DNA of 63,087 nt, the filler included, from Sarea resinae (Eukaryota): NCBI GenBank assembly GCA_026026165.1. It is 3 parts of 3 records of this genome, joined end to end, with 100 filler letters (N's around TTAATTAATTAA, not from the genome) between each part and the next. Parts side by side here need not be neighbours in the genome. Positions count along the whole stretch, not along the records: positions 22,435 to 43,720 come from JAPEUD010000132.1; 2 more parts are not named here. The stretch is one strand, 5' to 3'. The translations under genes were made by a program, and so were the position numbers. The notes under the pieces are model-generated. The model worked only from the letters and a program-made list of their open reading frames with translations, was not told the DNA's origin and searched no databases. This document shows positions 793 to 55,833 of the stretch, in pieces. Each line of letters opens with the position of its first letter. The stretch's first letter is position 1.

Positions 793-1665
793 CTAGACGA
801 GCCCGTCATACAGCGATAGGGCCGACACAATCGTTTGGTCCTTCTGAGAGCCTTCGCGGAACTCGTCGAGGCTGAGACTGCCGTTCTCGTCTTTGTCCAT
901 CATCGCGAAGATTTTCTGCACGCGCTTCTCGGGCGTGTCTTCGTCTTCGGGAAGCTTGACCATGGAGCCAACCTGAATATAATACTGATAGTAAGTATCG
1001 TGCTTGGCCGAGCGGAGACGGCAAAATCGAAGGGATATAGTACCATCTTGTAGATTGCCTCGACAATTCTCAGCATTTCTTCGTAGCTGATCTGACCATC
1101 GCGATCAATGTCATATAGCTGAAATGCCCACTGCAGCTTCTCGTCCATGGATCCTCTCGACGTGACGGACAGGGCGCAGATGAATTCCCGGAAATCAATC
1201 GTGCCACTGTTATCGGTGTCGAAGACACTGAAGACGTAATCGGCGAACGAGGTGGGGTCGCCAAACGGGAAGAATTGCTTGTAGATCTTTTGGAATTCGG
1301 GCTTTGTCAGATTACCGCTGGGGCAATCTTTGAGGAAACCTAGAGGAAGACGGAGCCCGTCAGTCGTGAGGTTCGAGAGCTGAGAACATGGATGCGATGA
1401 GGGGACGCACCGGTGTACCATTGGTGTAGCTCCTTCTTGTCAAAGTGGGTTGCTTTGAGGAGGTATTCAAGCTCGTTTTGCGGAAGCTTGGATTGGCTAG
1501 TTGAGGCCAAGGAGACGTGTTAGCTATTTGGTCGTGCCGTCGGAGGGGGAGCGCGCTATCGAGGCATTGCCGATTGCCCCTCTTCACCTCCCATGGCACC
1601 ATCGAAGGAGGCTGAATCTGCACAATGCGATGCAGGAGGGCTGATGGTACTTACGACTTTCCCAT
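793..1665 (-). CDS. NCS1: Neuronal calcium sensor / frequenin (NCS-1/Frq1) EF-hand protein, 4 exons
   Basis: Spliced product [41 protein letters not shown]...[13 protein letters not shown]...[12 protein letters not shown]...[13 protein letters not shown]...[11 protein letters not shown]-myristoylation start MGKS; GT-AG introns; ATG at 1665, TAG at 793-795. Confidence 0.95.
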
Positions 1666-3290
1666 CGTGAGGACCGGCACCAACGAATCGAGGACAGGGT
1701 GAGGTAGGATTCGTGTGCGCAGCAGCAGCAGGTGCAGATGCAGGTAGTCACGGAGAACAAACGGCCGAAGTGGGAGAGATGTCTGTCGATAGAGGCCGAT
1801 GAGCCCTGCCCTTTGAATCGGTCGAGTGGCTCTGCAGTGGTCGTCTGTCGTCTGTCGTCTGTCGTCTGTCGTCGTCGAGATCGGGATGCTTTGGATGTCC
1901 AAATGGATCTGGGCCTTTTGTCTGGATGCTTGTTGGTCTGGAGTGTTTCGAGGTTGCAAGTGGGATGTATGTATGTATGTATGGAGTAGCAGTCGAGTGC
2001 AGGCGGGTGGAGCACCGCAGATGCAGTACGGAGTACGCAGATGCAGTACGCAGTAAGTCGACGACATCCAAGGCCCTCCAGGAGCAGAGCAGAGCAGCGT
2101 ACCGTGCAGAGTCGTGCGCAGTAGCAGTGACTTGCACTCAGCAGGCTGCCGCCACAAACGGTCTAGCGCGGGGGTCTCGGGTCGACAAAGTCCCTCTCTA
2201 GACTCATGCAGCGGCTTCCAATGTCAACCGGGCGGGTCGGCACCACGACGAGACATGATCGGCTGGGCTGCTGCACGTAATCCGAGTGGGTCAAGGCGGC
2301 TCTCCAGAGTAGCCGTGAGTAGTGCACGCGCAGGAGTACGATGGAGTACTTGCGACGCGCATCCTCGATACATGAGGTAGGTAAGGTATGGACTTCTAGC
2401 ACGTATCAAGGATATCGACCATGACCAACACGAGGAATGGGATTCGGTCAATTGAGTTGCACTCAAGGGAACCCGAAAGCCCATGGAGCTCCCTGCCGTC
2501 CCTGCTGAATGGATAGCATCACTTGCAAAAGCCTGTCCTCGCTCTCCTCGCTCTCCTCGTAGATCCAGAGTGCGTCGGAGATCTCTCGCTAAATCGCCGA
2601 CCTTACCTTTGCCTGCCGCACCTTGCGGTAAGCTCCCTACGGTAAGCTGCCTTGGGTAAAGGTCCAGGTAAAGGAGTACGCAGATGCCAAACTCCACAGT
2701 CCAGCCCCGACGTTTCTATTTTGGTGGCACCCTAGAGTAAAGTAGTGTAGTAGTGGGCACGATCCATGGACGGCCGAGGGCCTTCCTCCTCCTCCGGAGT
2801 GCTCCATCTGACAACGCTCGAAGCTAATCCATCCTCCACGTGTGCAACACCTGTTCCCGTAGCTTCCCTCCTCCACCGTCTGAGCACCGACGGCTCCGCG
2901 TGGGTCGATCTCCAAGAGAACCAGACCAAGGAAGAATGCACAGCCTCCGAGGTTGCGTCCTCGCGTTCGAGTTGACGGAGAGAACCCAAGTCGAATGGTC
3001 GTGGACGTTGTTGACACACCGCGACCGAGATGGATGGATTTGTCGATGGTGATTGAATCTACTCCGTAAGCGATCTTGCTTGAGCGTCACGTGCTCGCGC
3101 GATCTACCGCGCTCAAACCGGCCAAACCACGAACTACTCACGACGATGCAGTACATGTCATGCCGATTTGTCTTTCTTCCCCTTCCTCACCAGACGCCAT
3201 CACGAAATACGCCGTACAGCAGTAAAGGATTCCTGGCCATTGGTGGTCGGCCACCTCAACTACATCCAATATAGACAGGTCGTAGACACC

Positions 3291-11052: not shown

Positions 11053-14000
11053 ATGGAGGACTCTTCGATCTTCGATGACTTTGGCGCGAGCTCTGATTTC
11101 GAGCCTGTAGCTGTTTCTGTGAGCAATCTATCCAAACCCTCGCACGTCCACATGAATCGCCTTGGCTTTTTCTCCTGCCTACTATGCTTACGCTTTCATC
11201 AAAGAAACCAAAGGCGAAACCTGCAACAAAGCCTGCTGCCAAAAAGGCTGCCACGACGACCAAGGTTGCGACATCTTCGAAAGCCGCGCCGAAGAAACTG
11301 GCACAGACGACACTCAAAATGAAAGCTCCTGTGGGTAAGAAACGGTCCCAGCCAGACACCGAAGATGAGATTGGAGAGGAAGAGCCTGATTCTGTCAACG
11401 ATGACTCTCTGCTCTCAAACACTCCGCCTAGCGCGAAGAAGCAGAAGAAGGCACCGGCGCCAAAGAAATCTAGCGGCAAGCCTCTCCATGACATCAACAA
11501 CGAGGGTATGGACCTCGACGGACCTAGTGACGCGAAGTCAAAAAAGGCAACCAACTCGTCAAGTCAATATCAGAGAGTATGAAATATGTCTGGCGATTTT
11601 AACTTCTCGATCACTGACGATTTTTTTAGCTCACCCAACTGGAGCATGTTCTGAAGCGCCCTGATACCTACATTGGATCTGTCGAGCGAACCGAGAAGCA
11701 GATGTGGGTCTATAATTCGCAGCAAGAGTGCATGGAGATGAGGGAAGTCAGCTTTGTTCCCGGTCTCTACAAGATATTCGATGAGATCATGGTCAATGCT
11801 GCAGATAACAAGCAAAACGACAAAAACATGGACGCTCTCAAAGTCACCATCAATCGTGAGAAGGGTGAGATCAGTGTCTTCAATAACGGCAGAGGTATTC
11901 CAATTGAAATACACGAAGTACGATACACCCACTCTTTACATGATCTTTTTGCAGGCACTGACAGGGAAAATAGAAAGAGAAAATCTACATTCCAGAATTG
12001 ATTTTCGGCCATCTTCTTACATCCTCAAACTACAATGATGAGCAACACAAAGTCACCGGTGGACGGAATGGTTTCGGCGCAAAGCTTTGCAATATCTTCA
12101 GCGCAGAGTTTACTCTCGAAACAGCCGATTCTCGCTCAGGGAAGAAGTACAAGCAGATTTGGACGAAGAACATGAGCAATATGGGCAAAGCCAAGATCAC
12201 GTCCTGCAAGAGCGATGATTTCACTAAAGTTACCTTCACTCCCGACTTTTCCAAATTTGGGATGGATGGGATAGACGACGATTTCGAGGCTCTCGTAAAG
12301 AGGAGGGTATACGATCTTGCGGGGACAGTTAAAGGAGTCAAAGTCTCCCTCAATGGCGAGAGGATCAAGCTTCGAAATTTCGAACAGTACATGAAGATGT
12401 ACACGAAGGCTATTGTCACGGAAAACGGCGAAGAAGGCTCCAGCGACAACAACAAGATCATCACAGAATCTCCAGACCCTCGGTGGGAGATCGGCTTTGC
12501 CGTTTCCGATGGGTCGTTCCAGCAAGTTTCCTTCGTCAACTCCATCGCAACAACTTCCGGCGGGACACACGTAAACTACATTAGCGACCAGATTGTCAAC
12601 AAACTCATGGACATCATGAAGAAGAAGAACAAGAATGGAGCAGCCTTGAAACCCAATCAGATCCGCAATCATATCTTTCTCTTCGTCAACTGCTTGATTG
12701 TCAATCCGGCTTTCACGGGGCAGACGAAGGAGCAGTTGACTACCAAAGCCAGTCAGTTCGGAAGCAAGTGCACAGTCAGCGACGAATTTCTCAAAAAAGT
12801 TGCGAAGACTGAGGTCGTCAACAACATTCTGCATTTCGCAGAGAAAAAGGCAGACCAGCTATTAAAGAAGAGCGATGGTAGTCGCCGGAGCCGAATGAGT
12901 AACCCGAAATTGATTGACGCGAACAAGGCTGGCACCAGAGAGGGTTACAAATGCACCCTGATCCTAACGGAAGGAGACTCTGCAAAGGGTCTCGCAGTAG
13001 CCGGACGATCAGTCGTTGGCGCCGACGAATTCGGTGTCTTTCCTCTGCGGGGAAAGTTGCTCAACGTTCGTGATGCGTCCATTGATCAGATTTCCAAGAA
13101 TACCGAAATTCAGAACATAAAGACCTTCCTTGGTCTACAGCACAAGAAGGAGTATACGGATGCTAAAAGCCTTCGCTATGGGCACCTCATGATTATGACT
13201 GATCAGGATCATGATGGAAGCCACATCAAAGGGCTACTGATCAACTTCTTGCAGGTCGCTTATCCCAGCCTGCTGCGGATCCCCGGATTTCTCATCGAGT
13301 TTATCACACCCATTGTGAAAGTGTGGAAAGGTGATCCGAAACGGCCGTCGAAATCCAAAACCTTTTTCACGATGCCTGAGTATGAAGTCTGGAAGGAAGA
13401 GCACAAGGGCGAGAACGGTTGGGAGCACAAGTACTACAAGGGTCTGGGAACTAGCACGAACGAGGACGCGCAAATCTACTTCCAAGATCTAGATAGGCAC
13501 TTGAAGCATTTCCATACAATGCAGGACAAAGAAGCAGAACTGATCGACCTTGCATTTTCCAAGAAAAAGGCCGACGAGCGAAAGGAATGGTTGCGCCAAT
13601 TCAAGCCGGGGACGTATCTTGATCACTCGATTGATAAGATCTCGTATACGGACTTCGTCAATAAGGAGTTGATCCTTTTCAGTATGGCCGACAATATGCG
13701 CTCGATTCCGTCCGTCATTGATGGCCTCAAGCCTGGCCAACGCAAAGTACTCTGGTCGTGTTTCAAGCGCAATTTAAAGAAAGATCTGAAGGTCGTGGAG
13801 CTTGCAGGTCTAGTCTCTGGTCTGGCTGCTTACCAACACGGGGAAGCTTCACTTCAACAGACAATCGTGGGTCTCGCCCAAACCTTTGCTGGATCGAACA
13901 ATGTCAATTGTCTTGAACCCAGCGGCAATTTTGGTTCTCGTCTCCAGGGCGGCGGCGATTGTGCAAGTGCTCGTTATATCTACACTCGGCTCTCACCCTT

Positions 14001-16300
14001 TGCTCGGCGAGTCTTTCATCAGCTAGACGACCCTCTTCTTACTTACAATACCGACGACGAAAAGCTTATCGAGCCTCAGATTTACTGCCCGGTGGTGCCG
14101 ATGATCTTGGTCAATGGAGCTGATGGTATCGGTACCGGATGGAGTTCTCAAATTCCGAATTACAACCCGGAGGACATCGTAGAAAATCTGAAGCTAATGA
14201 TGGACGGTCAGCCTCCCAAGACTATGACTCCTTGGTTTCGTGGCTGGACGGGAGAGATTACCGACCTCGGTGCAAATCGTTACAAGTTCAGCGGTGTCAT
14301 CAGACAGACCGGTGACAACGAGGTTGAGATTACCGAGCTCCCCGTCCGTATTTGGACTCAAGACTTCAAGGAGAAACTCGAAGATATCATCAGAGCTGAG
14401 AAAATTCCTTCTTTCATCAAGGATTACACCGACTACAACACGCACTTGAAGGTTCATTTCATTGTGCAGATGGAAGACAAGCACATGAAGATTGCTCTCG
14501 AGGAAGGGCTGGAAGAGAAGTTTAAGCTCTCCAGAACCCTTGCGACTTCCAATCTGGTAGCTTTCGATGCGGAGGGACGGATCACCAAATACGCGACGGT
14601 GGAAGACATCCTCAAAGAGTTTTACTATCATCGTATTAAATTCTATGAGAAGCGAAAGGCACATCAACTTGCAGAGATGCAAAAGCAACTCGACAAATTG
14701 AGTAATCAGGCTAGATTTGTCCAGATGATCATTGATGGAAAGCTGGTCGTATCAAAGAAAAAGAAGAGCGACTTGATTGCCGAATTGAAACAGAAAAACT
14801 TCAAAGGGTTCCCAAAGATCAAAGAAGCACTCAAGGAAGGAGAGCTGGAGCCTATGGCTGATGAAGAGTCTGAGGAGGACGTCGAAGCAGATGCTAACGC
14901 ATATGATTATCTTTTGGGAGTAAGTGTCGCCACAAAACAGTAGCTGCGCCTGACTGACTCGAAAATAGATGGCTATTTGGTCGCTTACCCGAGAACGCGT
15001 GGAGAAACTCTTGAGGCAAATTGGCGATAAGGAGCTTGAGATTGATGAACTCATCAAACTCAGCAAGGAAGACCTCTGGAAGAGAGATCTCGATGAATTC
15101 ATTGCTGAATGGAGATTTCAACTTGAGGATGAAGCTAGTCGCCAAAAGAAGGTTGCGAAGGCAGGTCGACGAGCTTCAACCAAGCTCAAGCTACCAGGCA
15201 AAGGTGCGGGTGCCAGAAAGCGCAAGGCACAAGGCGAGGATAGTGACTCCGACTTTGGCGTTTCAAAGTCACCGAAGGCGAAGAAAACTGCTGCTGCTAG
15301 CCGGGCACAACCTAAGTCAGGAATGCTCAGCTATTTGCAAAAGCCACCGTCTTCACCAAAGCAAGCTAAGAAACCCGCCGCGGCTGCTCTCAAGTCCTCG
15401 GCCAAATCTTCGCCAGATGCCGGTGTGCAGGTAGACGGGACTTCTGATCCGATCACGGAGGAAGATAACAAGGTCCTCCCTGTTCAGAAAAAGGCTTCGA
15501 AGGTTGCTCCGAAGCGGGCCGTGTCAGAGGCGATGAACGAAAATTCCTCGGACACAAAACAATCCAAAACAGCGCCCGCTCGAAAGGCCCGCGCGGCGGC
15601 AAGCAAGCCGGTCAAGTATGGAGGATCAAGCGACTCTGACAGTGATAACGGCGATGATCTGCTCGGGGATGTCAGCAAAATGGTGAAAGGGATAGGCGGC
15701 GCCTCAAATGAGCAGTCGGCTGGTTCACGAAGCCTATTTTCTGCATCGATGTCGCGGCCTGGCAGTAGCGCTGGATTGACGAGAAAAGCCTCACGACCTT
15801 CCGCTAGGCTTATTGCCGACCTCTCAGATGATGAGACTGACTACTCAAAACTCGTTCCCCAGCCATCTCCGCAAAAGCCCGTCACAACAGCTGCGAAAGA
15901 CACCATCCTCTCAGATGATGAAGATGATTCTTTCAATATGCTTCCCACGGCAAAGCCGCTTGCGCAGCCAAAACCTTTGGCGAAACCATCCGCGAAAGCT
16001 GCCAAGCCGGCAGCCGCTCCAAGGGCCCAAAAGGCTGCTCCGAAGAAGGCTGCTTCGAAGCAAAGCAAGCCTGCTAAGAAGAACACTTCAGTCTCCGATG
16101 ACGATGATGTTGACGCCATTGCCAATAACATCTTAGACTCCCCGGACAGAGATACGGCGATGGCAGATTCTTCTCCTCCTCGAGCCGCACGTCCAGCTCG
16201 CCGGGCTGCAGCAGCTCGGAAGCCTGTTGTCTATGCCGTGGATGACGACAGCGAGGAAGAGAGTGAAGCCTTCTCCGAAGCCTTTTCCGACAGCGAATAG
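11053..16300 (+). CDS. TOP2: DNA topoisomerase II, multi-exon
   Basis: LEHVLKRPDTYIGS, GLYKIFDEIMVNAADN, NNGRGIP, TGGRNGFGAKL (GHKL ATPase), TEGDSA, PLRGKLLN, IMTDQDHDGSH (TOPRIM), ASARYIYT (catalytic Tyr), and a Lys/Ser-rich C-terminal tail ending at 16300. Confidence 0.98.
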
Positions 16301-20123: not shown

Positions 20124-20721
20124 GAGGCGAATGGAAGATGAAAGTGTAGGTGATGGCCGTTGTGTCTGGATTCTTCAGAGGGCCGAAGGGTTAGTCTCTG
20201 GTTCTGAGGTGTGTGATCTGTGCTCCTCGATATACGATAGTATTCAAGCGTGTTGGGTCTCATTGGGAGACCCAAATACACATTCTCCCTAAAACAGACA
20301 AAGTCTGATCAGAAAGACATAGAAAGCATGGCCGCTTCATCCTCCCTCTCTACGTTTTCATTTTCTCTTTCCACTCTCTTTTCCAATTTCCATGCCCTGT
20401 TGCATCCAGCCCCACCCCCCTCCGGCCCGTCCCATTCACCCTCGCTGATAACGAACGACACGATACGCCCACATGTCCTGGATGACCCCCCACACTTCTC
20501 CGCATTTATTGCACCTAGGACAGTTATTCCTCCTTTCCTGGTTAGTCAATCAAATCAATCAAATCAATCGATCAATCGTTGAACAGTAATACTTCTTTTC
20601 GTTTCCATTTTATTTTGTTTTCTCCTTTTTCCCTCTTCAGTACCAGAGCAGACGCCATAGATTACATAAATCAAAGGGAATGCGCTTTCCGCTCTTGCTC
20701 TTGCTTTGCTCTGCGTGTGCT

Positions 20722-20800
20722 CTGTGCTCTATGCTCTATGCTCTATGCTCTATGCTCTATGCTCTATGCTCTATGCTCTATGCTCTGTGCTCTGTGCTCT
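20722..20800. repeat. (TGCTCTA)n 7-bp minisatellite
   Basis: About 10 tandem units of CTCTATG/CTCTGTG. Confidence 0.9.
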
Positions 20801-21245
20801 ATACTCTATTCTCTATGCCTTGAAAACCCAGACATCGCTACCTTACTGAGCTACGTTCGTGGGCTCCCTCCGTGAGCCACCTCCTATGGAACTGGCAAAT
20901 TCCATTCTAGCCCCAGCCCCAGCCAAACCATGTACCCGAGTCCGAGCGCGAGCGCGAGCGCGAGCGTGTTTGGATGGGGTAGAGAAGAGGTTTTGACTAA
21001 ATAATTTCCGGAGCGGGGGGGAGGGGTTACGTGTGTACGTGTACGTAGGTACGTGGGTACAGGTACGAAGGTAATGCAACTTAGAACCGGCCCCCCCCCC
21101 CCAACTCCGAGCGAGCGAGCATAGGATGATTGAACTTCAACGATGAATTACTCAACAACGCACCGATAGATTTCCTTCAAATTAAAGATATAGATAGTTA
21201 ACATCATGTAGAAGAGGAATATCAATTTTGTTTAGGAGCGACAGC

Positions 21246-22334
21246 TCAACATTTCGTTGCGTATCTATCTATCTTTAAAACCTCCTCGATCTAAGCAGGC
21301 ATTGAGTCTACCTACTTGTTGAAATTCTGCTTAGCCACTAAACGATCCCACTCTGATTTTGCTGCTTGCTAGAGATCCTCTAGGTTATTGTACACCTTAG
21401 GCTAGTGCTTGATTCTCTGCTTCATAGCCCCCCACATATTTTCATTAGGGTTAAGATCTAGTGAAGAAGGGGGCCAAATTAGACTCCTAAGACCTGCTCC
21501 TTTCCTCTACTTAACAGCCTCCTTTGAGCGATGAATAGGTGCGCTGTCTTCTATAAGTAGTGGATCTATATTTAGAGACTGTAGATGATAAAATGCTGGT
21601 TCGATCTATAGTTCAAGCACTTGTTCTATATAGTCAACAGTGCCTATCCCATTTTTTATCTCTCCTCCACGTCTAATTTTATTTGTAGGCTTAAGCTTCA
21701 CTAGCTCTGTTGCTCTACTGTACTAGATGCCTCTCTAGACTATTACTAAGCCTCTGCCTAAGTGTCAAGTCTTAACAGTGCAGTCAGGGCAGAACCTTTT
21801 AAAGGACCTTCTTATCACCTATTTCTTTCCTTTTATCCCTGTGTTAAAAGAGGATTTATCGGTCTAAATAACGCGTCGCTACTGATCCACAGTCTAGTCC
21901 TTATGCTTCTTCGCAAAATCCAGCCTTTTCTTGCGATTGATTTTGTTAATAAATGGCTTAAAACAGGCTGTGCATTTGTGGAAGCCAATACATGCAAGGG
22001 CATTGCAAATTGTTGTACAACAGGCCTGGATTTCTAGCTCTTTTGCCTAAACTAAATAGGATGCTTGCCTTGCATCTGCTGATTCACATATCCTTCGTGT
22101 AAGTTGTCTGAGCAAACAGTCGCTGATTTTTAGTGGTTAGCCTTTGCGTCCTCCTGGATCGCGTTGCGAAGATTTTTGACCGATGATACGCCTCACAGTG
22201 CTGCGCGGGACCTGGGTAAGCTGGGAAATTCTAGTATAGCCCACGTCGCTCGCCTGATGCAGAGTTCGTATCTGCTTTCGTTTTGTATCGTTCCATTCGC
22301 ATTGTGGCCCAGGGCGTGGCGGCGAAGAATTCAT
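21246..22334 (-). mobile_element. Tc1/mariner DD34E transposase relic, RIP-inactivated; 5' end runs into the gap
   Basis: N-terminal HTH (GYTRISQLTQVPRSTVRRII), FAKKHKD*TVDQ*RRVI*TDKSSF (Trp TGG>TAG three times), EDSAPIH followed by exactly 34 residues then E in WPPSSLDLNPNENMW, and a SMPA*IEEVLK..ATKC* tail. Confidence 0.92.
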
Positions 22335-22434
22335 NNNNNNNNNNNNNNNNNNNNNNNNNNNNNNNNNNNNNNNNNNNNTTAATTAATTAANNNNNNNNNN
22401 NNNNNNNNNNNNNNNNNNNNNNNNNNNNNNNNNN
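22335..22434. other. Assembly gap with artificial TTAATTAATTAA stop-linker
   Basis: N-run interrupted by a palindromic linker with stops in all frames; the same linker occurs in the second gap. Confidence 0.95.
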
Positions 22435-22537
22435 CCCCCCCACCAGACCCCCACAATATCCTAAAAACAAGGAAAATGAAACCCCTAACAATGGCCATCC
22501 CCACTAATGCACTCAATCTCTGCGCCTGAGTAAACAG

Positions 22538-23048
22538 AAAACCCGACCTCACCCAAGCCCTTCAAGACACCCATCTCCAAACCGCCCTAACCCACAGCCC
22601 ACAAACGCGCCACCCATCGCTCTCCTACGCCCACTCCCAAACATCAACACATCTCGCAACGACGATCGCACTCGCGACCGCGCTCGTGCGCCAAGAAGCC
22701 GACCTGCACGCCGCGCGCACGCACACGCAAGCTCGTCTCCTCGCCGCACACGCCCTCGAGCGCCAATGGCGCGCGAAACAGTCGGCCATGGATGAGGCCC
22801 TGGCGCCCTTCGGGCCCAAGGCCCTGTATCAGCGCCTCTGTGCCGCAGTCGCAGAGCAGGAGGCCGTGTGTGCGGCACTGGAGGAGAGCTTCCTCGAGGG
22901 CGGCGGTGGGGCCGGCGAAGAGGGTAGGGGAGGTGAGAGGGAGGTGAATGAATTCGTGAAGAGGTATCGCGAGGCCAGGAAGTTGGCGTATCTGAGGCGC
23001 GAGAGGAAGGAGAGGTGGGATGAGGGTAGGGTGGGAGGGTGGCGGTAA
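22538..23048 (+). CDS. VPS37: ESCRT-I subunit Vps37/Srn2-like (Mod(r) domain), 3' exon only; 5' part lost in gap
   Basis: After the CAG acceptor at 22537: ...HPSLS...LERQWRAKQSAMDEALAPFGPKALYQRL...EQEAVCAALEESFLEG...EVNEFVKRYREARKLAYLRRERKERWDEGRVGGWR*, the characteristic fungal Vps37 C-terminus. Confidence 0.8.
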
Positions 23049-24690: not shown

Positions 24691-25200
24691 GTCGCACGAC
24701 GGCTAGGTCGTGAATGCCAGAACAACGGAGTGGGAGAAATGACTTACCAGAAGAGAAGAACAATGAAGAGGCGCTCGGAAGACAAGAGCTTGAGGGAATC
24801 AATGAAGAGGATCGAAGAAGAGATCTCACACTGAAATGTTGTCGATTGCAGGTAGAAGTGGGTGAGGAAGGAAAAGAAGATGGGAATTTCTTCGCGAGAA
24901 GTTTTGAGGCGAAGGCCCGGCTAGCTACGGTGCCCGTTGCGGCCTCCGCTGCGCTTCTCGGCCACTGCACTTTAGGTCGGCACGGGTGTCCGTCATTGTT
25001 CACGTTCGTGAGCTTTTATCTGACCTGGAGGATTACTTTCAGGAGACCATGCCATGGACCCGGAGTTTGAATGACTTTGTATTGAATTGCCAGTGCCAGC
25101 GCGTATCGTCTGAAAGTACCCAACGCTCAACTACACTATTTCAATATCTAAAGATATTGCGGCATGGAGAGATATCATAAAGGCCGTGAGAGCTTGGACC

Positions 25201-26385
25201 TTATCTCTCGATGCTGACATCTTTGACGCCATTAAAGTCGTTCAGTCGATGCGCCTTGGCCCACTCTACAATCTTATCCTATTTTCGACACGTATGCGTC
25301 GTACTGCCTGAACTTAGAAAGCGATTGCTCTCTTCGGACCATTGCCAATAGATCGTACTTATATCAGCGTTGCACATCAGGCTTTGCCGGACAGAATCGA
25401 GGCAGTGCTCTAGTTTCGATGGTATGATTGTTAGTATACCCACAGCGTTTGGTTACCATGACAGAGGCACACGAAGTAATGGTGCAGAGGAATGCCAAAT
25501 CAAACGGACGTACCATCGTGTGTCCATCTGTTTTCGGCATCCAATATCTTCTCTGGGTACCTATCAGGATACAGCAGTTTCCTGATCCGGTTCAGGCAGT
25601 GAAGCTGATGAAAAACATCAAGACCGACGACATAATGGCCAGGTTTCTCGGGAATCTCAGCGGTGGCGTTTGGAAGACGCTTGGCATCGGAAGCGGGGAT
25701 CTGGGTGAGGCTGTTATCTGGCACGCAAGGTCAGCAAAAAGTGCCAGAGAACCGTAGCAGGGTTGTCGTCATGAAGCGTATAAGGTGCGATTGTGTTAGT
25801 CCGTGAGGGGTGTATAGGATCAAAAGACAGCTTACGATTGTAGAGAGCCAGCCATGCTGCATCGCCTTCGTCTGACGGTGGACCCAAGTAAGGTGTCTTC
25901 CGAGGGCCATTCCTAGACGAAGGTTATTCAGCTTAGGATGTCGTGTGGTTGGAGGTGAGTTTTGTAAACTCGTCAGACTAACCTTTCTACCCCAAATCCC
26001 GAGTTGAAGACCACCGTCTCGTACTCGATAGCATCTTGAGCAGGAGCTGCCGGTGTGATGTTATAGTCTTGTAACGTTTCGGAATAGATTCAATGACAGA
26101 CTCACAGTACACATCGCTGGGCCACGGTGGGAGCGGAGATGATGGCCGCCGTGCTTTGATGAGCAGAAATGTACATATGCCCAGCAACACACAGTTCAAG
26201 ACGATGGAGAACGAGGAGAGGGTGGCATGCAAGCTTCGTCTCTTGCCCGGTGCAGGGAACGATGATGAGCTTTCTTCCTCTCCAACAACATTGCCATCGT
26301 CTTCGTTCTCAACATCTCTGAGAAGGCCTTCATTCGACAGTCTGGGCTCAACAGCTTCGTACTTTTGCTCTTCGTCAAAGACCAT
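25201..26385 (-). CDS. UstYa-like / DUF3328 oxidase, 5 exons; in-frame TAG at 25279-25281, 25 codons before the terminal TAA
   Basis: N-terminal TM helix (FSIVLNCVLLGICTFLLI), VYSPAQDAIEYETVVF, PYLGPPSDEGDAAWLALY, LDVFHQLHCLNRIRK (HxxHC-1), THDEHCLDSVRQSLMCNAD (HxxHC-2), THTCRK*DKIVEWA. GT-AG introns keep the frame. Confidence 0.9.
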
Positions 26386-27761
26386 GATTGCTAGAGAAAG
26401 CGGCAATTGTCGATGCGAGCAAAGGAGAACTGTGGCCGGCTCAGTGGGAAGGTGGTGAGGAAGAGGAGGAAGACTGAACTGTGCACCATTTTCCCTGATT
26501 ACTTGATATAAGGCAGTCCGGCCTTTGCCCGTGGACACCCTTGATTCCTCTGCAGAGAACGACCCATGGAATGACGCTGCATCACTATTTTGATAGTGAT
26601 GCTGGTGATATCCGTATGCATGTCAGACGGCAAAACAGGCTTCTCACGCATTGTAGACGACGTGCTGATTGACATACATCTTTCGTATATGCGAAGAATT
26701 GAGTGGTAAGAAGCGAGGTCAAGGGCTGGCGGGACGCCTTATCTGTCGATTGATTGGGGAACGTCAATGAACGTCCAGCATGCTGATTTTTGTACGACGA
26801 TACCTGACGTATCAAAGGAGTGTTGATCTCAACGGTCGGTCTGCATCGAGGCCCAAGCTCGACAAATACCCCGCAATGTCAACCACGGATGCAGGGCGGT
26901 CTTAGCAGCTGCACCAGTCACCGAGCCCTGAACGCCTTTCGTATTAGGCCTTCAGCCCGAAACACCTTGCGCATCATGCATACCACCTCATGAATTCGAT
27001 TCGTGCTACACCACACTAGTTCCCGCGGACCCCAAAGCTTGTCTATACGACCCGTCTTTGCGAGCCGAGTCAGATGTCGAAAAGCTTCAATCTACGGCGG
27101 GACACCTGTATGGCTATCTCAATCTATCGAATACAGGGGTCCACCTGCAATTGAAACTGCGATGCAGATTTAGAGGCGTGCTCCTCATAAAAGAATGGAG
27201 CTCGCGAGACACAAGACGGGGACGCCGATAGGCATTTCGGGGGCGCCGATAGGAAGAGGATGTAGAGCGGTCTAGAAGAGGCCGAATGAGGAGACGGCAT
27301 GCTCTCCGCTGCTCCCTTCTCCCGAGGTGAGGTAGAACGATTAAGGCCCGCAGAATCCTGCCTTGTGACCTCGGATTCGACCTCGTCAGGGCCTTTAGAA
27401 TCAATGGCTATGTCAGACTCTGTCACTTGCATCGTGCGGAGATACTAATGGACTGCTGCAGGGAGCATGGTATCTGCAGCGTAGAAACAGGGTTATCTTT
27501 GCAACTACCTTGAACGTAGCTTGCAAATGTTCACCTCATCGGGCATGTAGATCAAACGCTGAAAGCTTGATGGCTCGAGTGACCGACAGAATCATATAAG
27601 AGGATTGGAAACCTCGAAGATAACCCAGGGTCACATTCTAAAACCGAAGCCTGGATACAACTCACTTCCGCGCCTTGATAGAAATTGACAGCTCGCCGTT
27701 GATCCTACCTGGGCTATTTGAATCAGCTCCTTCCAATCTAGCCAGCCTACCAATATCCACA

Positions 27762-28165
27762 ATGCGTCTCTCAATTCTCACTGCGGCCGCTTTCGTGGTC
27801 CCGCTCCTAGCTGCTGCCATTCCTCCAGGTTAGTTTACCCTCGCAACTCCGAATAGACGAGAGAGAAATTTGAGACTCCGCGTTCAGGAGATTCGATGAA
27901 GAGAGAAGTGGGAGAAACCAATGAGTGGTTCGACACCGATAGCTGGGTGAAACCCGAGAAGAGGGGCGTGGAAGAAACCAACGAATGGTTCGACACCGAC
28001 AGCTGGGTCAAGCCCGAGAAGAAGGTCAAGAGAGACGTGGAAGAGACCAACGAGTGGTTCGACACCGACAGCTGGGTCAAGCCCGAGAAGAAGGTTAAGA
28101 GAGACGTGGAAGAGACCAATGAATGGTTTGACACCGACAGCTGGGTCAAGCCGGAGAAGCATTGA
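27762..28165 (+). CDS. Secreted Kex2-processed repeat peptide precursor (putative fungal RiPP precursor), 114 aa, 2 exons
   Basis: Exon 1 (27762-27828) encodes signal peptide MRLSILTAAAFVVPLLAAAIPP. Intron 27829-27887 (GTTAGT...CAG) joins in frame to GDSMKR, then four KR-delimited repeats containing ETNEWFDTDSWVKPEK. Confidence 0.9.
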
Positions 28166-28770
28166 TGACCCCTAATTCCAAGCAATACGGCCGGCCCAAC
28201 AGACTTGACAGATGGGAACACCTGCCGCGCTGGATTGAGAACGGACAGAGGAGCTACAGGAAAGCGAAGGCAAAGAGGGTGGTGGAATGGGTATTTTGAC
28301 GTTAAGCTTGTGCTCGGATTGTTTTCCCGATGAGGCAAACAAACCAATGATGCTACTGTGCTTCCTGCTTTGTCTTTCTTTGAAGCGCATTTACAATACT
28401 CTCATTACTACCGATATCGGGCAGAAGTCACACCCAAATGCCTCGATTTGGAATTTCAGAGGCGAGCTTGTTAGTGAATGTATGCAATCAATCTGATTAT
28501 GAATTGTAGCAGTGATCTATTTACCAGAACCACAGCCACGGATATTCTGAAAAATCCGGCCAAGCAAACGCGCCAGAAAGATACTAACAAGCTGCTGCTG
28601 CTCAGACGATCGAAGGTCGGAGTCATCAAGTTCCCTTCTTCACTTCTGTGATGACTTCGAAGCACATCGGCGGCCTGGGCGCCTGTTAGACCAGGCACAG
28701 GCCTAGCCGTGTCTCCAGATTTTCTACTTTTTTCCCTCCCCGCGCTTGGCCTCTAGGCCGCGTTCGTCTC

Positions 28771-30272
28771 TTAGGCTTCTGCCATCTCACTCCGGAGAGT
28801 AGCCGCTTGCTTTCGAAGCAAGTTGCCGAACTGTCCAAACTTCTGGTCGTCCTCGTCGTTGTCCTCGTGCTCGTACTCGTCCAGTGTGGCACGACCGGAC
28901 GACTTGCGATACAGGGACAACAGTGTAGAAAGATACAGCTCCTTAAGATAGGCGAAGCTGAACCCATCTGTGACAGATGCTACCTGCTCCGGTACGGCTG
29001 CGGAAACATCCACTGAGGGTTTGGGGAGCAGTTTATCACTATAAGACGGTCAATTATCGTCGCGGCCTGGAATCAGAATAGCCAAACTTACTTCCACACT
29101 TGACAATAGCGCTGGCGCTGCTCGAATGCTGGAGTGTTGAAGCGATATTTGCGATCGAATCGACTCGGACGTTTCGAGAGGCCGGGATCAAGCTTGTCTA
29201 AATGGTTGGTGGTCCCTATCACGAGGATCCCATTGTTGTCCTCGAGTCCGTCGAGCTCATTCAGAAAGTCACTGCGGACCTCATCTGAGATGAGGCTATC
29301 GATGTCCTCTAGCAGCAGCATGCATGGGGCCGTCTGCCGCGCCATGCTGAAGATGGCTTCAATCGACATCTGCTCAATACCACTCATCTGTGCCAGGGAC
29401 TTGACAAAGAGAGTGGGGATCGGCTCAGGACGTGCCATGAGCGTCTTCATAAGCACCTTCAAGGTCATCGTTTTACCGTTACCAGGAGTACCGTGGAAGA
29501 TAAGGCCGCGCTGTAGGCCGTCAGTATAGCCAATCACAAAAGTCTAAGAGAAGGAGCAGCTAACCTTCCAGGGCGCACCAAACTCTGCATATTGATCTTT
29601 TGCGTCGAAGAAACCTTCCACATCTCTGGTAATGTCGCTCTTCGTCTTCTCCTCCAAGATGATGTCCTCGTACTTGGAGTCTTCGACGGACCGCCAGAGA
29701 TCCGTGTCCGTATACCAATTACCGTTCTTGAAAACCCAGACCGCTTTATCGCTCTTATTCTCCCACGTGCCTACGGCGAGGACCAGTGCCTCGATTGACT
29801 TGCTTATGGGACCACCTGCCGGCTCGCCCTCTTCTGGCTTGCACAGGACATATGTCTGCTGCATGGGGTTACCGCAATTGTCGACGGAGACGACATAAAC
29901 CTCGAAATGATGACCCTGCCAATCGTAGTCGTACCGACCGAAGATGACATTACCGCGAACCGTGCCGAGAGCATCTTTCCCCAAGACTCGACGGTCTGGA
30001 AGTCGGTATGACCAGGAGTGCAAAATCGGAGAGTCATGGACGAGTTTGGCGGTGGCGTGGCCGGCCTCGGCGTATTTGACGAGATCACTGCTGCATGTCG
30101 TGACGTAGTGGTCGGGATATTTCTCGCGCAGAGCAGTCAAGAAGACAGCGTTGCTTTGGACTAGCTGAGCAGAGGTGTGCTCGCGATACAAGTCGTAGAT
30201 CTGTCTCTGACGGGTGGGTATTGGCTGGGAGCCAACCTCTGTGCCAGCCATGGTGTCTCTGTTCTCGGGCAT
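28771..30272 (-). CDS. Single-module AAA+ ATPase (fungal accessory type), 3 exons
   Basis: Walker A GTPGNGKT, Walker B LLLEDID, sensor GTTNHLDKLDPGLSKRPSRFDRKY, lid TDGFSFAYLKEL. ORFs 29544-30275, 29088-29537 and 28771-29013. Confidence 0.88.
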
Positions 30273-33952: not shown

Positions 33953-34309
33953 CCCGGCCTTCTTCCCATGACTTTGAATTTCTACGTGTAATCTGAATCC
34001 AATGGGTTGCGATCTCATCAATCATTTTTTTTGAACTTTGTCAAAGAGTGATCCGCGTACATGTATGTACCTACTATGTAAGAGGACAATAATTTCGACA
34101 CAAAATGTTGTCATTGCGTGTCGTGGCTAGCCGAGTCAGAGCGAGCCGAGCCGAGATAATGCCATGGGCGCCTAAAGGACCCTGAGACATGGTATCATGA
34201 TATCCATCGGCCAATCTTGTCAACCATCGTAACTACCTCAAAAGATTCCAGACGCCATCTTAGACTTGCGGACGAAAACCTCTTCTTTAAAGATCGCGAT
34301 CGCCGCATC

Positions 34310-35497
34310 ATGGGCATCCTGCCAGCTCTGCTCAAAATCACTTTCTTTGCCGTGGCGATCCCCACGACCATCTACTTTAGTGTCCTCGGGCTGCTGGTCA
34401 CCGTCCCGGCCCTTCAAAACCACGTCTTCTACCTCCACCGCGTCACCCTGACCTGGTTCAGAGATCTCAACGTGCCCGAGAGCTTTGGCTTCCTACCGAA
34501 TCAAGTCACTCCCTTCCCTATCAGGACGGCCGACGGCGAAACCCTGCACGCCTGGCACGTCCTTCCACTCGATCTATATCGCCATCACCAGAGAGAGCTG
34601 CTGGCTCAGCCTTCCGGTTTCGCCCCCGACATCAGCTCTCGCCTCAATTTCCAACTCTTGCGCGATGATCCCGACGCGCGCCTCGTTATATATTTTCATG
34701 GCACAGCGGGCACACTCGGCTCAGGCTGGCGACCTGACAGCTATCGCGCGCTTTACTCCGCCGCACCCGAAAAGATCCACATCCTGACGGCCGACTACCG
34801 GGGCTATGGACGGAGCAGCGGCACACCGTCCGAGGAGGGGCTTTTGCTCGACGCCATCGCCATCACGGAATGGGCTATCAAGGTTGCCGGCATTCCCGCC
34901 TCACGCATCGTCGTCTTCGCCCAATCCCTCGGCACCGCGGTCGCCATCTCCACCGTGCGCCACTTTGCCATACAATCGCCCCCGGTCTCGTTCGCGGGCC
35001 TGGTGCTCGTTGCGTCCTTTCCCGACGTTGCAACACTGCTGGGCACATACCGCGTGGCAGGCGTCATACCCGTGCTATCGCCGCTGAGCCGCCTCCCACG
35101 GTTGCTGGGCTTCTTCACTGGCTTTCTGACCAACACGTGGCGAAGCGACCATCGCATTGCTGAATTCGTGCGGCGCAGCGAAAAATACCACGTCACGTTC
35201 ATTCACGCGGCGGACGATGCCGATATCCCATATATACATACCGAGGACTTATATTGGCATGCTGTCAACGCGACGACTACCACAGGCATGAGCTACGAGG
35301 AGCTAGAGCAGGAGAAGGCCATGAAGAGGACAGACTTGGGCCCTGGTGGGTCCGTCATGGAGTGGCAGACCAGCAAAGGTGTGATTAGAGAGGAGATACC
35401 CAAGTATGGAGTACATGACAGAGTCATGGCATATCCTGTGACCGCGCTGGCCGTGCTACGAGCGTTCCAGGATGCAGATCCAGAGTTTGCCAATTGA
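34310..35497 (+). CDS. Alpha/beta hydrolase, ABHD12/Bem46-like membrane-anchored lipase
   Basis: N-terminal TM helix, IRTADGETLHAWH, YFHGTAG, DYRGYGRSSGTPSEEGLLLDA, nucleophile elbow AQSLGT, IHAADDADIP (Asp), GVHD (His). Intronless. Confidence 0.9.
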   Translation: MGILPALLKITFFAVAIPTTIYFSVLGLLVTVPALQNHVFYLHRVTLTWFRDLNVPESFGFLPNQVTPFPIRTADGETLHAWHVLPLDLYRHHQRELLAQPSGFAPDISSRLNFQLLRDDPDARLVIYFHGTAGTLGSGWRPDSYRALYSAAPEKIHILTADYRGYGRSSGTPSEEGLLLDAIAITEWAIKVAGIPASRIVVFAQSLGTAVAISTVRHFAIQSPPVSFAGLVLVASFPDVATLLGTYRVAGVIPVLSPLSRLPRLLGFFTGFLTNTWRSDHRIAEFVRRSEKYHVTFIHAADDADIPYIHTEDLYWHAVNATTTTGMSYEELEQEKAMKRTDLGPGGSVMEWQTSKGVIREEIPKYGVHDRVMAYPVTALAVLRAFQDADPEFAN

Positions 35498-38759: not shown

Positions 38760-41700
38760 AGGATTTACCTTAGGGTTACGCATTCTATCAACAATCTAGA
38801 AGAGTAGAGCCTTTGACCTGCTAACAAAAGTTGTAGTATTTAATGCGACAAATTAATAAGTGTTATTAGATTGATAGAATTCGACGAAAAAAGTAGGTTT
38901 GTTAGACCTTTTGCAACCCTAAGTTACTCTAGACCTAAATCTAATACAAAGTAGAAGATTATATATAGTAGTAGGTGGTATAGAACGCGAAGTAGAGAGA
39001 ATAACTATTAACAAGCAATGCAAATCAAAGAACAGTAGTAATAGAGTTATACATTATAGATCTATATTTAACAAGCAGTTTAAATAATAGTAAGAAAGAG
39101 GTTTAAAAGTGCAGTTAAAAATACAGATATTAAGCTGTTTAAAAGGCAGATAGATAAGGTAGTAGGTAGTCTATAGATAGCTTATTAGTTAACCTATAGG
39201 CAGCTTGTTTTAAAGCCTGTTTAAAAGCCTAGTAGTTAAAACCTAGTAAGTAAGCTATTAGAAAAGCTATTAGTTAACTTGTTAATTAGTTAGTTAATTA
39301 AGTATTTAAATTATAAACCTATTAATTAGTTAGTTAGTTAGTTAAGCTATTAACTTACAAAAGCTATAGAGTGCCTGTTTAGCAGCAAAGAGTTTATAGT
39401 AAATCTTATATATTAGACCTATTCTTATTAATAACTAGAGTTAAACTTAAACTCTAAAATTACATACTCTTTTTAACAATTATAATTAGTAAAAATAATT
39501 TAGTAAGAGTAGAACTCTATTAGTAGAACTCTAGTCAGTTAATACTGTTAAAATACTCTCTTTCTTTAAGCGCATTATATCTTCTAATCTTCTCTATTAT
39601 AATTCTATAAAGCATAATTAATTATCTTACATTATAGCTGCAATATTACTAATAGGCTATCTACTTAGGTTTAGGTACCTAGCCTAAATTAAGCTTTAGG
39701 CAGGTTAGCCTGCCTAATTACATAATCAGGTTGGGTTTAGGCAGGCTCAATTCACTGTAGGGCCTACAGCCTACCTATTAGGTTTCAGTGGGTAGATTAG
39801 ATAAGATTATCACTTGATAAGATAAGATAAGTAATTTTCTCGCTAAGCGGTAACACATAGAGGTAACATTTTGTAGGCAATAATGTACTTAGGTACGAGG
39901 TAATAGGTACGTACCTCCACATGACTAGGTACGTACCTAGTCATGTGATTACATAATAGGTACGTACCCTATGAAAAAGTCACATGAAGGTACGTACCTA
40001 GTCACATGACGGGTACCTGAGCCCACCTATCAGGTCCTACCAGTCAGGTACATACTGCTGTAGGTACCTGCTACCCACGAGTAGGCGGGTACGTACCCCC
40101 CTACCCGCCTAGTAGGTACCTAAGTAGACAGCCTAATCACTAAATAAAGTGCTTAGAGTTTATTAGAGTAACTTAGAGCTACTTTAGATAAGTACTAAAG
40201 CTAGGAGTTAGAGGCAGAATAAGTAAGAGTAAAGAGCTGTTTAAAGAGCTAAGGTAGTAAAGACAGCTAAGTAATTAACTATATAATAGATTAATTAATA
40301 CTATAATTAATACAGTAATAAAGTAGTAGAATTACAGATATTATATCTTTATTGCAGTAGAAAGGTATAGTAGAAGTGTAGATAGAAGTGTAAGTGTAAG
40401 TAAAAGTAGAAGGTAGAGCTGCTATAATTAACTAGCTATACTATAAACATAACTTTTAAGTGCTTCTATACAGTTAATATAGATATATAATTAGAGATCT
40501 TAACTAGCATTTAGTATATTATTACACTTTATCTATTAAAAAGCAATAGTAGATTCTAGTGCAGTTTTAAAACTATATCTTAGCTAAACCTATTTGTATT
40601 GCACTTAGTAATCCTACTAGGATTAAAGAGATATACTAGGTATATACTCTAACTACTTTACTACTAATTAGCCTACTTTACTAGTAGAAAGTAGGATTAA
40701 GTATAGTAGGATTAAGTAAGATACTAGCATATTAAAATCGCTTCTAATATTGCTAGCTATATCTCTAACTCTTAAAGAGCTGCCTTTCTATAGCACTTAA
40801 TTAATTATCTCTTACTATTAATACTGTTTAGGCTTGCTTAACTCTCTAGAGTTACTTAATCTTAGTTAGAGCTACTTTCTACTTATACTCTAACTATATT
40901 GCTACTAAGAGCGACTAAGTAAGTAAGTAGGTGTGCTTTAAGTAACCTCTCTCTCTCTAGTAGTATATCCTTAAGTAACTCTTATACTCTAACTATATTG
41001 CTACTAAGTAACTAAATAAGTAAGTAAGCACGCTCTAAGTAACCTCTCTCTCTAGTAGTATATCTCTAGGTAACTCTTAGTAGCTATAGCTACTTTTTTC
41101 TAAAATAGTAACTAATTAACTAACTAACTAGTTAAGCACGCTCTAGGTAACTCTTTATAGCACCTTAAGAGAAGTAAGCCTTAGTAGTATCCTAACTATA
41201 TAGCTAGTTGCTATCCTATCTAATACAGCTGTTTAACAATTAAACTTCTAGATAGTCTAGCAGAAAAACCTCTCTCTAGGCTATAAGCGCTTTACTTACC
41301 TTACTTGCTAGCTATTTAGCTAGCTAGGCTAGTAAAATAATAAATAATCCTAAGCAAGCGTCTAGTGTTTATTTATTAACTACCTAGTGTATACGCGTCG
41401 CTTATTAGCTAGCCTAGCTAGTAAGTAGAAAGTGTAATTAAAGTAGTGTATAGGATTAAGCTAATGCAAAACTAGTAAGACATTGTATCTAACACTGCTA
41501 GCCTAATCTCTAACCTATAGGTAGTAGCCTTTCTATATACAACTAGATTTAATTATCTTCTCTTACTATTAGAGCTGTTCTAGTATACTTAACCTCTTAG
41601 AGTTATAAGGCCTTAGTTAGAGCTACCTTTAACTTATACTTTCTACTAAATCTCTTTAGTTAGTTATAGTAAGTATATACACACGCTCTAACTATCTATT

Positions 41701-55097: not shown

Positions 55098-55160
55098 TGG
55101 GAGGAGAATGGGAGGAGAATGGGAGGAGAATGGGAGGAGAATGGGAGGAGAATGGAGGAG
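55098..55160. repeat. 11-bp minisatellite (GGGAGGAGAAT)n
   Basis: About 5.5 tandem copies. Confidence 0.9.
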
Positions 55161-55833
55161 AACGAGTCAAGAAGATGACGGCTTATCGACGCTGATCGAC
55201 GCTTATCGATAGAGCTCGGGCTGCCATGATGCAGCTGGAATGGGCTTACCGCAGTAGGGATATGGATCCATGGATGGATACATACTCCGGAGGAGTACTT
55301 CCATCACTTGGTACGTGTGCAGCAGCCTGAGGTACTCATAGTACTCATGGTACTACATAGTATGCACTCGTAGTTCCCCAACGAGAGAGGTTCCCCGGTA
55401 CTTCCGTACTCTGGGAGTACGCCGTACCCAAGGTACTCTTGCAGTACTATGATCCCTCGTACCGACTGCGTACTCCATACTTCAGGAGACCGTAAGGTAG
55501 CCCACGTTGACACCGACACGTTGAGACCGGTCATTGAAGGCACGCATCGTGCTCCATCCACCGACAGAGAGGGCAACTGGCACCATGGCTGCTCACCCGA
55601 AGCCCATGATACCAATCCTCGACGTCCTTTGCTTCCATTCCGAGACTGACCGCTTCTTCTTCGCCGCGGCCATCATCGGATGGTCAGAAGGGAGCGACTT
55701 TAGCTTCACGGTCGAGGCACCAGTAGAAGGTATATAAGACGCCGAAGCTATCCTGCCTGCGTGGCATCACCCTCCTCATCATCATCATCTCGAGTGTCCT
55801 CCATCGTCGCCCCATGGCATCCCGTCCGCCATC

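Follow-up and report, generated by a model that had tools for sequence, protein, structure and literature searches.

In the fungus Sarea resinae (class Sareomycetes, Pezizomycotina), a gene for a putatively secreted repeat precursor lies head-to-head with a gene for a UstYa/DUF3328 oxidase, which raises the question of whether this oxidase modifies the peptides cut from the precursor, and into which product. We analyzed the pair, at positions 25201 to 28165, within a window of 63,087 nucleotides (the whole stretch of DNA under study, filler included; assembly GCA_026026165.1), in which 3 parts of 3 records of this genome are joined end to end and positions 22,435 to 43,720 come from JAPEUD010000132.1. 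From the sequence comparisons presented here, our reading is that the pair belongs to a two-gene, Trp-type and so far uncharacterised variant of the dikaritin-like systems for peptides made on the ribosome and modified after translation (RiPPs). We give a probability of about 0.6 to the pair being a compact, dikaritin-type RiPP module of two genes, and the same to the oxidase modifying the precursor.

The precursor and its four repeats

The precursor gene runs on the plus strand from an ATG at 27762 to a TGA stop at 28165, and its spliced product of 114 residues consists of a hydrophobic N-terminus (mean Kyte-Doolittle value of 2.39 over residues 3-20, the signal peptide being predicted from hydropathy alone), a short pro-piece ending in KR (Lys-Arg) and four units split by KR. 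These units, EVGETNEWFDTDSWVKPEKR, GVEETNEWFDTDSWVKPEKKVKR, DVEETNEWFDTDSWVKPEKKVKR and DVEETNEWFDTDSWVKPEKH, separate at KR exactly as a first-pass annotation of this DNA had modelled them. Kex2-processed repeat proteins (KEPs) are defined by at least three near-identical KR-separated units, and we counted four units and four KR sites. Tandem Repeats Finder gave a score of 333 to the array (period 69, 3.9 copies), which was the sole protein-type repeat across the 63 kb of the window. Five Pfam matches of the precursor, the best of them CGLD27-like (23.9 bits, cut-off 25), were rejected as repeat artefacts.

A 16-residue block, ETNEWFDTDSWVKPEK, was the same in all four units. Among the four copies of the 48 nucleotides that encode it we observed 8 variable sites, all eight of them synonymous differences at third codon positions, in a stretch where synonymous sites make up only 7.3 of the 48; purifying selection acts on the peptide block. 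Since none of the eight differences alters the peptide, the constraint applies to the whole block and not merely to a short core, and a constraint over 16 residues fits a core together with a recognition sequence. Amino-acid variation was confined to the three residues ahead of the block and to the basic spacers behind it, the C-terminal spacers of the four units being R, KVKR, KVKR and H. The units are strongly acidic (isoelectric point of about 4.2) and read E-W-F-D-T-D-S-W. The whole precursor contains no Tyr, so that the core Tyr of a dikaritin aryl ether is absent.

The oxidase gene

The facing gene, on the minus strand, has five exons (Table 1). The Pfam profile PF11807 (UstYa), the check that had been proposed for its identity, matched exon 4 with 54.3 bits (profile positions 98-150 of 220) and exon 5 with 41.7 bits (positions 168-209 of 220), both above the cut-off of 25 bits, and the second match ends at position 209 because of an in-frame TAG. 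The product has one hydrophobic stretch, corresponding to one predicted transmembrane (TM) helix, and the motif pair HxxHC(x)nHxxHC, present as HQLHC in exon 4 and as HDEHC across the exon 4/5 junction, the latter confirmed by RNA. The assignment to the UstYa/DUF3328 family is thus upheld, as is the head-to-head layout at about 1.4 kb. A hidden Markov model (HMM) built from seven homologues gave no match beyond the oxidase exons when run over the window in all six frames; this lone match, together with the lone coding repeat, indicates one oxidase gene and one precursor gene in the window.

A public protein (P0001, 212 residues; labelled at NCBI as metagenome-assembled Sarea resinae) is identical to oxidase exon 1 over its residues 1-93. 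Its model omits the last intron (25514-25409), reads into intron 4 and ends in ...THDGTSV, leaving the annotated protein without the second HxxHC. The closest relative of the oxidase was a paralogue of 311 residues under the same species label (P0051), with 55.7% identity over 287 residues and an intact C-terminus.

Table 1. Features of the window and repeat units of the precursors at five related loci
Feature	Position	Strand	Remarks
UstYa/DUF3328 oxidase, coding part	25201-26385	-	5 exons; 277 codons with the TAG read through, 251 ahead of the TAG
Oxidase exon 1	26106-26385	-	acidic N-terminal tail; predicted TM helix L52-I76 (26158-26232)
Oxidase exon 2	25983-26046	-	gene model, RNA contig, homologue HMM
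Oxidase exon 3	25836-25912	-	gene model, RNA contig, homologue HMM
Oxidase exon 4	25514-25717	-	HQLHC at 25596-25610; first part of second HxxHC at 25514-25520
Oxidase exon 5	25201-25409	-	rest of second HxxHC at 25402-25409, conserved Cys, TAG, conserved tail, TAA at 25203-25201
In-frame TAG	25281-25279	-	26 codons ahead of the natural TAA; in the window and in X1 DNA
Spliced oxidase RNA contig	25061-26320	-	X2, single contig of 909 nt
Divergent intergenic region	26386-27761	.	1,376 bp ATG-to-ATG, head-to-head genes
Precursor RNA contigs	27648-28385	+	X2, three contig records, 5' leader to 3' untranslated region
Precursor exon 1	27762-27828	+	67 nt, encodes MRLSILTAAAFVVPLLAAAIPP-; putative signal peptide MRLSILTAAAFVVPLLAAA...
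Precursor intron	27829-27887	+	59 nt, GT..AG (GTTAGT...CAG); spliced out in RNA
Precursor exon 2	27888-28165	+	pro-region ending in KR, four units, stop TGA
16-residue block, copy 1	27914-27961	+	ETNEWFDTDSWVKPEK
16-residue block, copy 2	27974-28021	+	
16-residue block, copy 3	28043-28090	+	
16-residue block, copy 4	28112-28159	+	
Precursor of locus L003			...PDILYDNAAGWG-KR; four units
Precursor of locus L004			...ESFDNPAWWGK-KR; four units; no Tyr
Precursor of locus L010			...KVYGIVQWH-KR; six or seven units
Precursor of locus L012			...EEFQPQPEIGWG-KR and variants; no Tyr
Precursor of locus L025			...DDSWTPGPRGESWF-KR; three units; no Tyr
Topoisomerase II	11974-14940		Pfam scan of open reading frames (ORFs)
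Mod(r)/Vps37	22530-23045		Pfam scan of ORFs
AAA ATPase	29091-29543		Pfam scan of ORFs
Alpha/beta hydrolase	34160-35494		Pfam scan of ORFs

Transcription and splicing

RNA evidence came from a wood-decay metatranscriptome run of a separate study (X2), in which 38% of the words sampled from the region are present. The oxidase contig is joined at 25409/25514, 25717/25836, 25911-12/25982-83 and 26046/26106, all with CT..AC on the plus strand, and the four introns thus removed are exactly those modelled beforehand. For the precursor, one contig ending at 27829 runs on into the first bases of exon 2 and another, starting at 27885, has the last bases of exon 1 ahead of it; these two loose ends across 27828/27888 indicate that intron 27829-27887 was removed in the RNA, the outcome on which the first-pass annotation had made its proposal depend in advance. 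Both genes are transcribed and spliced. No X2 RNA covered positions 26392-27495 of the intergenic region, and the contig depths (27.8 for the oxidase, 57-408 for the precursor) are unsuited to ranking expression. At 27648, the precursor contig also carried a loose end of 27 nt, which matches the precursor splice junction in reverse complement and is most likely a fold-back assembly artefact.

Related modules in the oxidase clade

A scan of metagenome contigs with oxidase exon 4 gave 80 loci, falling into 52 distinct groups. The best identity among these loci was 66%, and we therefore found no orthologue of the oxidase among them. A FastTree phylogeny was computed from 174 profile columns and 57 distinct sequences, combining the locus oxidases assembled from HMM matches with 12 database proteins. 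In this tree the window oxidase paired with the paralogue P0051 (support of 0.99), and both were placed inside a clade of 13 tips. All five clade groups whose upstream sequence reaches 2.2 kb or more (L003, L004, L010, L012 and L025) carried a Trp-containing KR-repeat ORF on the opposite strand, with its own predicted signal peptide, at 0.9-1.3 kb from the exon-4-equivalent match. A uniform precursor detector, which asks for a repeated 6-mer and two or more dibasic sites, recovered these five loci, and outside the clade Trp-type precursors were present in 3 of the 26 groups with comparable flank (Fisher p = 3.3e-4, uncorrected for relatedness). The linkage between precursor and DUF3328 gene that had been predicted is therefore supported through remote analogues (5/5 clade loci), and the part of the prediction that concerned sequence homologues of the precursor is left without any example in our searches.

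These modules resemble the window pair in oxidase clade, head-to-head two-gene layout and Trp-containing repeat, but differ from it in that their catalytic domain is intronless and that their oxidases are only about 40-50% identical to the window oxidase. The motif E-x-F-D-[NT]-x-x-W is common to L004 (E-S-F-D-N-P-A-W) and the window with identical spacing, and L003 carries Y-D-N-x-x-x-W. Tyr was missing from the precursors of three of the five relatives (L004, L012 and L025). Across the clade relatives, Trp was the only constant aromatic residue, with a second aromatic residue 5-9 positions upstream.

None of the accessory genes looked for was observed beside either the window pair or its relatives, as expected from the minimal two-gene cluster that the annotation had suggested. 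Domains of tyrosinases, methyltransferases, S41 peptidases and transporters were absent from 36 ORFs of at least 150 residues across the window and from 91 of the 100 ORFs of at least 80 residues at 16-38.5 kb (of the remaining nine, seven belong to the earlier scan and two overlap a scanned ORF); likewise, no tyrosinase, methyltransferase, S41 peptidase or major facilitator superfamily (MFS) transporter was found in 111 ORFs of at least 100 residues at the five related loci. The neighbours of these five loci are mutually unrelated (NACHT_N, HET, UCH/Rav1, histidine phosphatase), indicating that what is conserved is the compact module and not a larger cluster.

Other arrangements were seen around the same gene family. 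At L003, a second UstYa gene (1323-1964, minus strand) lies on the other side of the precursor, so that this module has two oxidases. Another precursor type, with 7-10 units around HHKGKRVKNNKR or HHKGKGRKG, lies near more distant UstYa genes (L062 1455-2336; L065 1808-2488, the same as L068; L078 3-362) and recalls the di-His types of a published survey (PMC7329392); di-His precursors were detected in 2 of the 26 groups outside the clade and at one further locus with shorter flank. Repeats with Trp near KR also stand by UstYa genes outside the clade, at L042 (5715-6314, minus strand, ...AGTYIWKR), L059 (2643-2837, plus strand, ...IAEGWKR) and L034 (1-210, minus strand, ...SVAGWAEGKKR), and the pattern of Trp before a dibasic site may be wider than one clade.

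Comparison with known systems

The closest characterised case is asperipin-2a of Aspergillus flavus, the smallest known dikaritin-type system, which like the window has a Kex2-repeat precursor, one DUF3328 enzyme (a cyclase, named AprY in PMC12435403) and no tyrosinase (PMC7329392). In contrast to the window, its rings are Tyr aryl ethers, and we detected no similarity between the two precursors. The ustiloxin and phomopsin systems (UstA/UstYa/UstYb; PhomA/PhomYa-e) share with the window KR-delimited cores, HxxHC oxidases and a signal peptide, which in the window is only predicted, but have 2-5 DUF3328 genes, a tyrosinase, a methyltransferase, other tailoring genes and Y-x-I-x cores. The dikaritin rings discussed in the parts of the literature covered are Tyr aryl ethers. 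The original five-gene definition of dikaritin or ust-RiPS clusters, which included a tyrosinase, a methyltransferase and a peptidase or transporter (quoted in PMC12048977), has since been relaxed. The window pair lacks two classical dikaritin features, namely the accessory tyrosinase and methyltransferase and the core Tyr.

The first-pass annotation had treated the Tyr-free core as special, which overstated the case. Among 1,758 Kex2-repeat precursors accompanied by DUF3328 genes, 34.4% of the repeats are Tyr-free and 20.5% contain Trp, and the surveyed precursors linked to DUF3328 form predicted, uncharacterised pairs, type P-3 ('W accompanied by P') being one kind, and many are lineage-specific (PMC7329392). 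Tyr-free and Trp-containing precursors linked to DUF3328 are thus already known from surveys, and such pairs are numerous and diverse. The present module is a good and concrete lead for genome mining, being unusually simple and having natural variants, but no categorical surprise.

Among enzymes of the same family, CctR, the hydroxylase of cyclochlorotine, resembles the window oxidase in its TM helix, lumenal helical domain, HxxHC(x)nHxxHC and conserved Cys after the second motif, but its substrate is a cyclic peptide of non-ribosomal origin and no repeat precursor belongs to it (PMC12435403). Outside the fungi, the BURP-domain cyclases of plants, which make burpitides, resemble the proposal in forming copper-dependent side-chain cross-links on ribosomal repeat precursors (PMC12186524). 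These cyclases differ from the window oxidase in having an unrelated fold and belonging to another kingdom, and they serve as an analogy only. Some BURP cyclases form Trp-based links.

The literature searched contained neither the window motif nor the motifs of the related loci; these motifs were also absent from the spreadsheets of PMC7329392 (three) and PMC6339444, which may hold no sequences. A profile search (A2) found none with an experimentally derived name among the best 120 of 168 UstYa proteins. No paper characterising a Trp-type module was found in the literature search. Work on asperigimycins, which reportedly carry a Tyr-Trp benzofuranoindoline, may already show chemistry of the DUF3328 family on Trp, and this would bear on the novelty of the present module.

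Proposed route and product

Beyond gene structure, expression and pairing, the account is what we infer. The divergent genes would be co-regulated from the 1.4-kb spacer, and the precursor would enter the secretory pathway through its signal peptide. The oxidase would be a single-pass membrane protein, with a lumenal binuclear copper site formed by the two HxxHC motifs, by analogy with CctR, which is membrane-anchored, lumenal, homodimeric and O2-dependent and binds two Cu per monomer at HxxHC(x)nHxxHC (PMC12435403). In every one of the four units, it would attack a C-H bond by means of O2; Kex2 would then cleave after the KR pairs and exopeptidases would trim the ends, giving up to four copies of one product. 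Because the C-terminal spacers are unequal, extra trimming would be needed to obtain a single product. That the oxidase acts on the precursor is suggested by precedents: DUF3328 genes peak adjacent to Kex2-repeat precursor genes, and DUF3328 enzymes are needed for cyclising the ustiloxin, phomopsin and asperipin-2a cores, asperipin-2a taking one (PMC7329392).

The most likely product would be a macrocycle closed through side chains, with the second Trp of E-W-F-D-T-D-S-W as its anchor; hydroxylation or desaturation would be the fallback. A Trp-anchored macrocycle is favoured because the units have no Tyr and the relatives keep a constant Trp; moreover, as the first aromatic residue may be Tyr, Phe or Trp and the downstream Trp is constant, Trp and not a phenol would be the anchor. 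An indole-based macrocycle nevertheless stays a tentative proposal, with odds below even. We regard as unlikely the wider possibility of an undescribed subclass with a lone UstYa, always head-to-head and without tyrosinase, making an indole macrocycle in which Trp would be linked to a residue 5-9 positions upstream (for example within F-D-[NT]-x-x-W) and being switched on or off by a stop codon or by editing. If true, this would give fungi a counterpart to the Trp cross-links that BURP cyclases form in plants.

DUF3328 enzymes were only lately shown to be binuclear copper enzymes, and a two-gene, tyrosinase-free module is a near-simplest test bed, with one small precursor and one oxidase. The five related loci provide natural variants, and with a constant Trp and a variable first aromatic residue the module could show what else the UstYa family cross-links.

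Several observations weigh against a modified, Trp-type product. The oxidase is truncated by the TAG in the present assembly, where the frame through the conserved C-terminal Trp-Ala is incomplete. The action of DUF3328 enzymes extends to the tailoring of non-ribosomal peptides, for example cyclochlorotine (PMC12435403), and adjacency is therefore no proof of a RiPP role. The co-expression amounts to the presence of both spliced transcripts within one environmental RNA sample, with no contrast. In the tree, support for the clade was moderate (0.74; 0.83 for the sister group), the clade was delimited after the precursor types were visible, and 19 of 81 composites (those below 110 columns), among them two di-His loci, were dropped; the precursor detector was crude. 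In addition, Trp stands 1-2 residues before the dibasic site in the relatives but at least 5 residues away in the window.

In addition, the searches detected no relative of the precursor by sequence. Of 235 candidates that share words with it, none scored; HMMER against 1.84 billion representatives returned 11 matches at E <= 1e-3 and none at 1e-10; and a pattern scan of metagenome contigs gave 54 matches, none of which was confirmed. Five of the 11 weak HMMER matches were inspected and rejected as unrelated repeat proteins, alike through periodic E/W/F. Small spliced genes are often unannotated, and these null searches therefore do not prove the precursor unique. In the published survey, 2,560 of 7,878 Kex2-repeat precursors are singletons without a homologue (PMC7329392).

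Among the alternatives, the one that survives best, though doubtful, is that the oxidase modifies the precursor without any Trp cross-link, by side-chain hydroxylation, desaturation or halogenation. Halogenation, hydroxylation, macrocyclisation and isomerisation are all reported for the family (PMC12435403), and the units offer no Tyr for the known aryl-ether ring; the single DUF3328 enzyme of asperipin-2a is nonetheless a cyclase (PMC7329392), and the retention of Trp and an upstream aromatic residue across six modules suggests a two-point constraint. Less likely again is an ordinary Kex2 repeat protein giving unmodified linear secreted peptides, with an oxidase that acts elsewhere or decays. 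Such a reading would agree with the premature stop in the assembly's oxidase, with the 78% of 7,878 Kex2-repeat precursors that have no DUF3328 neighbour (PMC7329392) and with the non-RiPP substrates of DUF3328 enzymes (PMC12435403). It would, however, require the chance adjoining of a scarce UstYa gene and a scarce precursor, which is unlikely, and the head-to-head pairing recurs in all five clade relatives with context. Decay would also be recent at most, since the tail beyond the stop is conserved and an open form is transcribed elsewhere.

The stop codon in the oxidase and the remaining alternatives

The in-frame TAG that had been noted is present in the window, and the X2 RNA contig has C at 25280 (plus strand, T>C), which gives TGG (Trp) and an open frame. 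X1 DNA contigs read T at 25280 (TAG), and X1 may be the source of the assembly; the lichen metagenome contig near the stop (X3) ends at 25282, short of the codon. When the TAG was read as X in an alignment (A1), it stood opposite Phe (5) or Trp (2) in all seven homologues, and the paralogue P0051 carries Trp at this site. Exon 5 has nine invariant columns, two of which (Trp-Ala) fall beyond the TAG. The same X2 oxidase contig shows a second difference at 25161 (C-to-U in the mRNA sense) and a neighbouring X2 contig a transversion at 28762, indicating that X2 comes from a slightly different strain. Beyond the stop, the tail of the window oxidase has remained well conserved, so that the stop is recent.

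Taken together, these results make it very probable that the TAG is a strain-specific nonsense allele, and an intact natural form of the oxidase, with TGG, exists. The TAG removes the last 26 codons, including the invariant Trp-Ala, and the truncated enzyme of the sequenced strain probably does little, so that little if any modified product is probably formed in this strain. The difference between stop and Trp offers a ready natural comparison of producer and non-producer.

A restorative A-to-I editing of a genomic UAG would produce the same pair of reads, being A-to-G in the mRNA sense at UAG with U at -1. Fungal editing often hits UAG and mends premature stops in pseudogene-like genes, and restorative A-to-I editing at UAG is described in sexual-stage transcripts of Fusarium and Neurospora (PMC11156358, PMC10776026). 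We nevertheless consider editing improbable here, as the RNA (X2) and the DNA (window and X1) come from different samples, the differences at 25161 and 28762 show that the strains differ anyway, and the local RNA fold places the A of UAG in an unpaired linker and not in a hairpin loop, with a fold no better than that of shuffled sequences (z = -0.49). Editing of this kind is not known outside Sordariomycetes and Pezizomycetes.

Pheromones of the Pezizomycotina have Cys and Gly-Gln features, which the window units lack. An alpha-type sex pheromone, to which a putatively secreted KR-repeat precursor with Trp-containing units might point, is very improbable, as neither MF_alpha nor MF_alpha_N matched the precursor even at E <= 1, the units are strongly acidic and, of 216 putative pheromone precursors, 98.6% stand without a DUF3328 neighbour (PMC7329392).

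Genomic surroundings

The other long ORFs of the window are housekeeping genes, encoding, in addition to those in Table 1, an EF-hand protein, Med4, a RabGAP, a dynamin, Timeless, a 3-hydroxyacyl-CoA dehydrogenase, Mgm101, a biotin-protein ligase and TANGO2. The pair is a two-gene islet amid core genes, and the base composition near it was ordinary and showed no signature of an island. A short way downstream of the 3' end of the oxidase, an X2 RNA contig joins 24542 to 24748 (minus strand, CT..AC, 205 nt skipped); no convincing ORF or Pfam match was found at about 23.3-25.06 kb, and this spliced transcript may be a non-coding RNA or a small unannotated gene. Positions 21000-22500, with a GC content of 0.39-0.46 and a sub-threshold match to a Sleeping Beauty-type transposase helix-turn-helix (22140-22382, 25.4 bits, cut-off 43), may be a decayed transposon. 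Simple repeats were observed at 1-72 ((GA)36, at the window edge), 20718-20818 (a 7-mer in 14 copies), 40882-41079 (a 95-nt unit in two copies) and 55098-55162 (an 11-mer in six copies).

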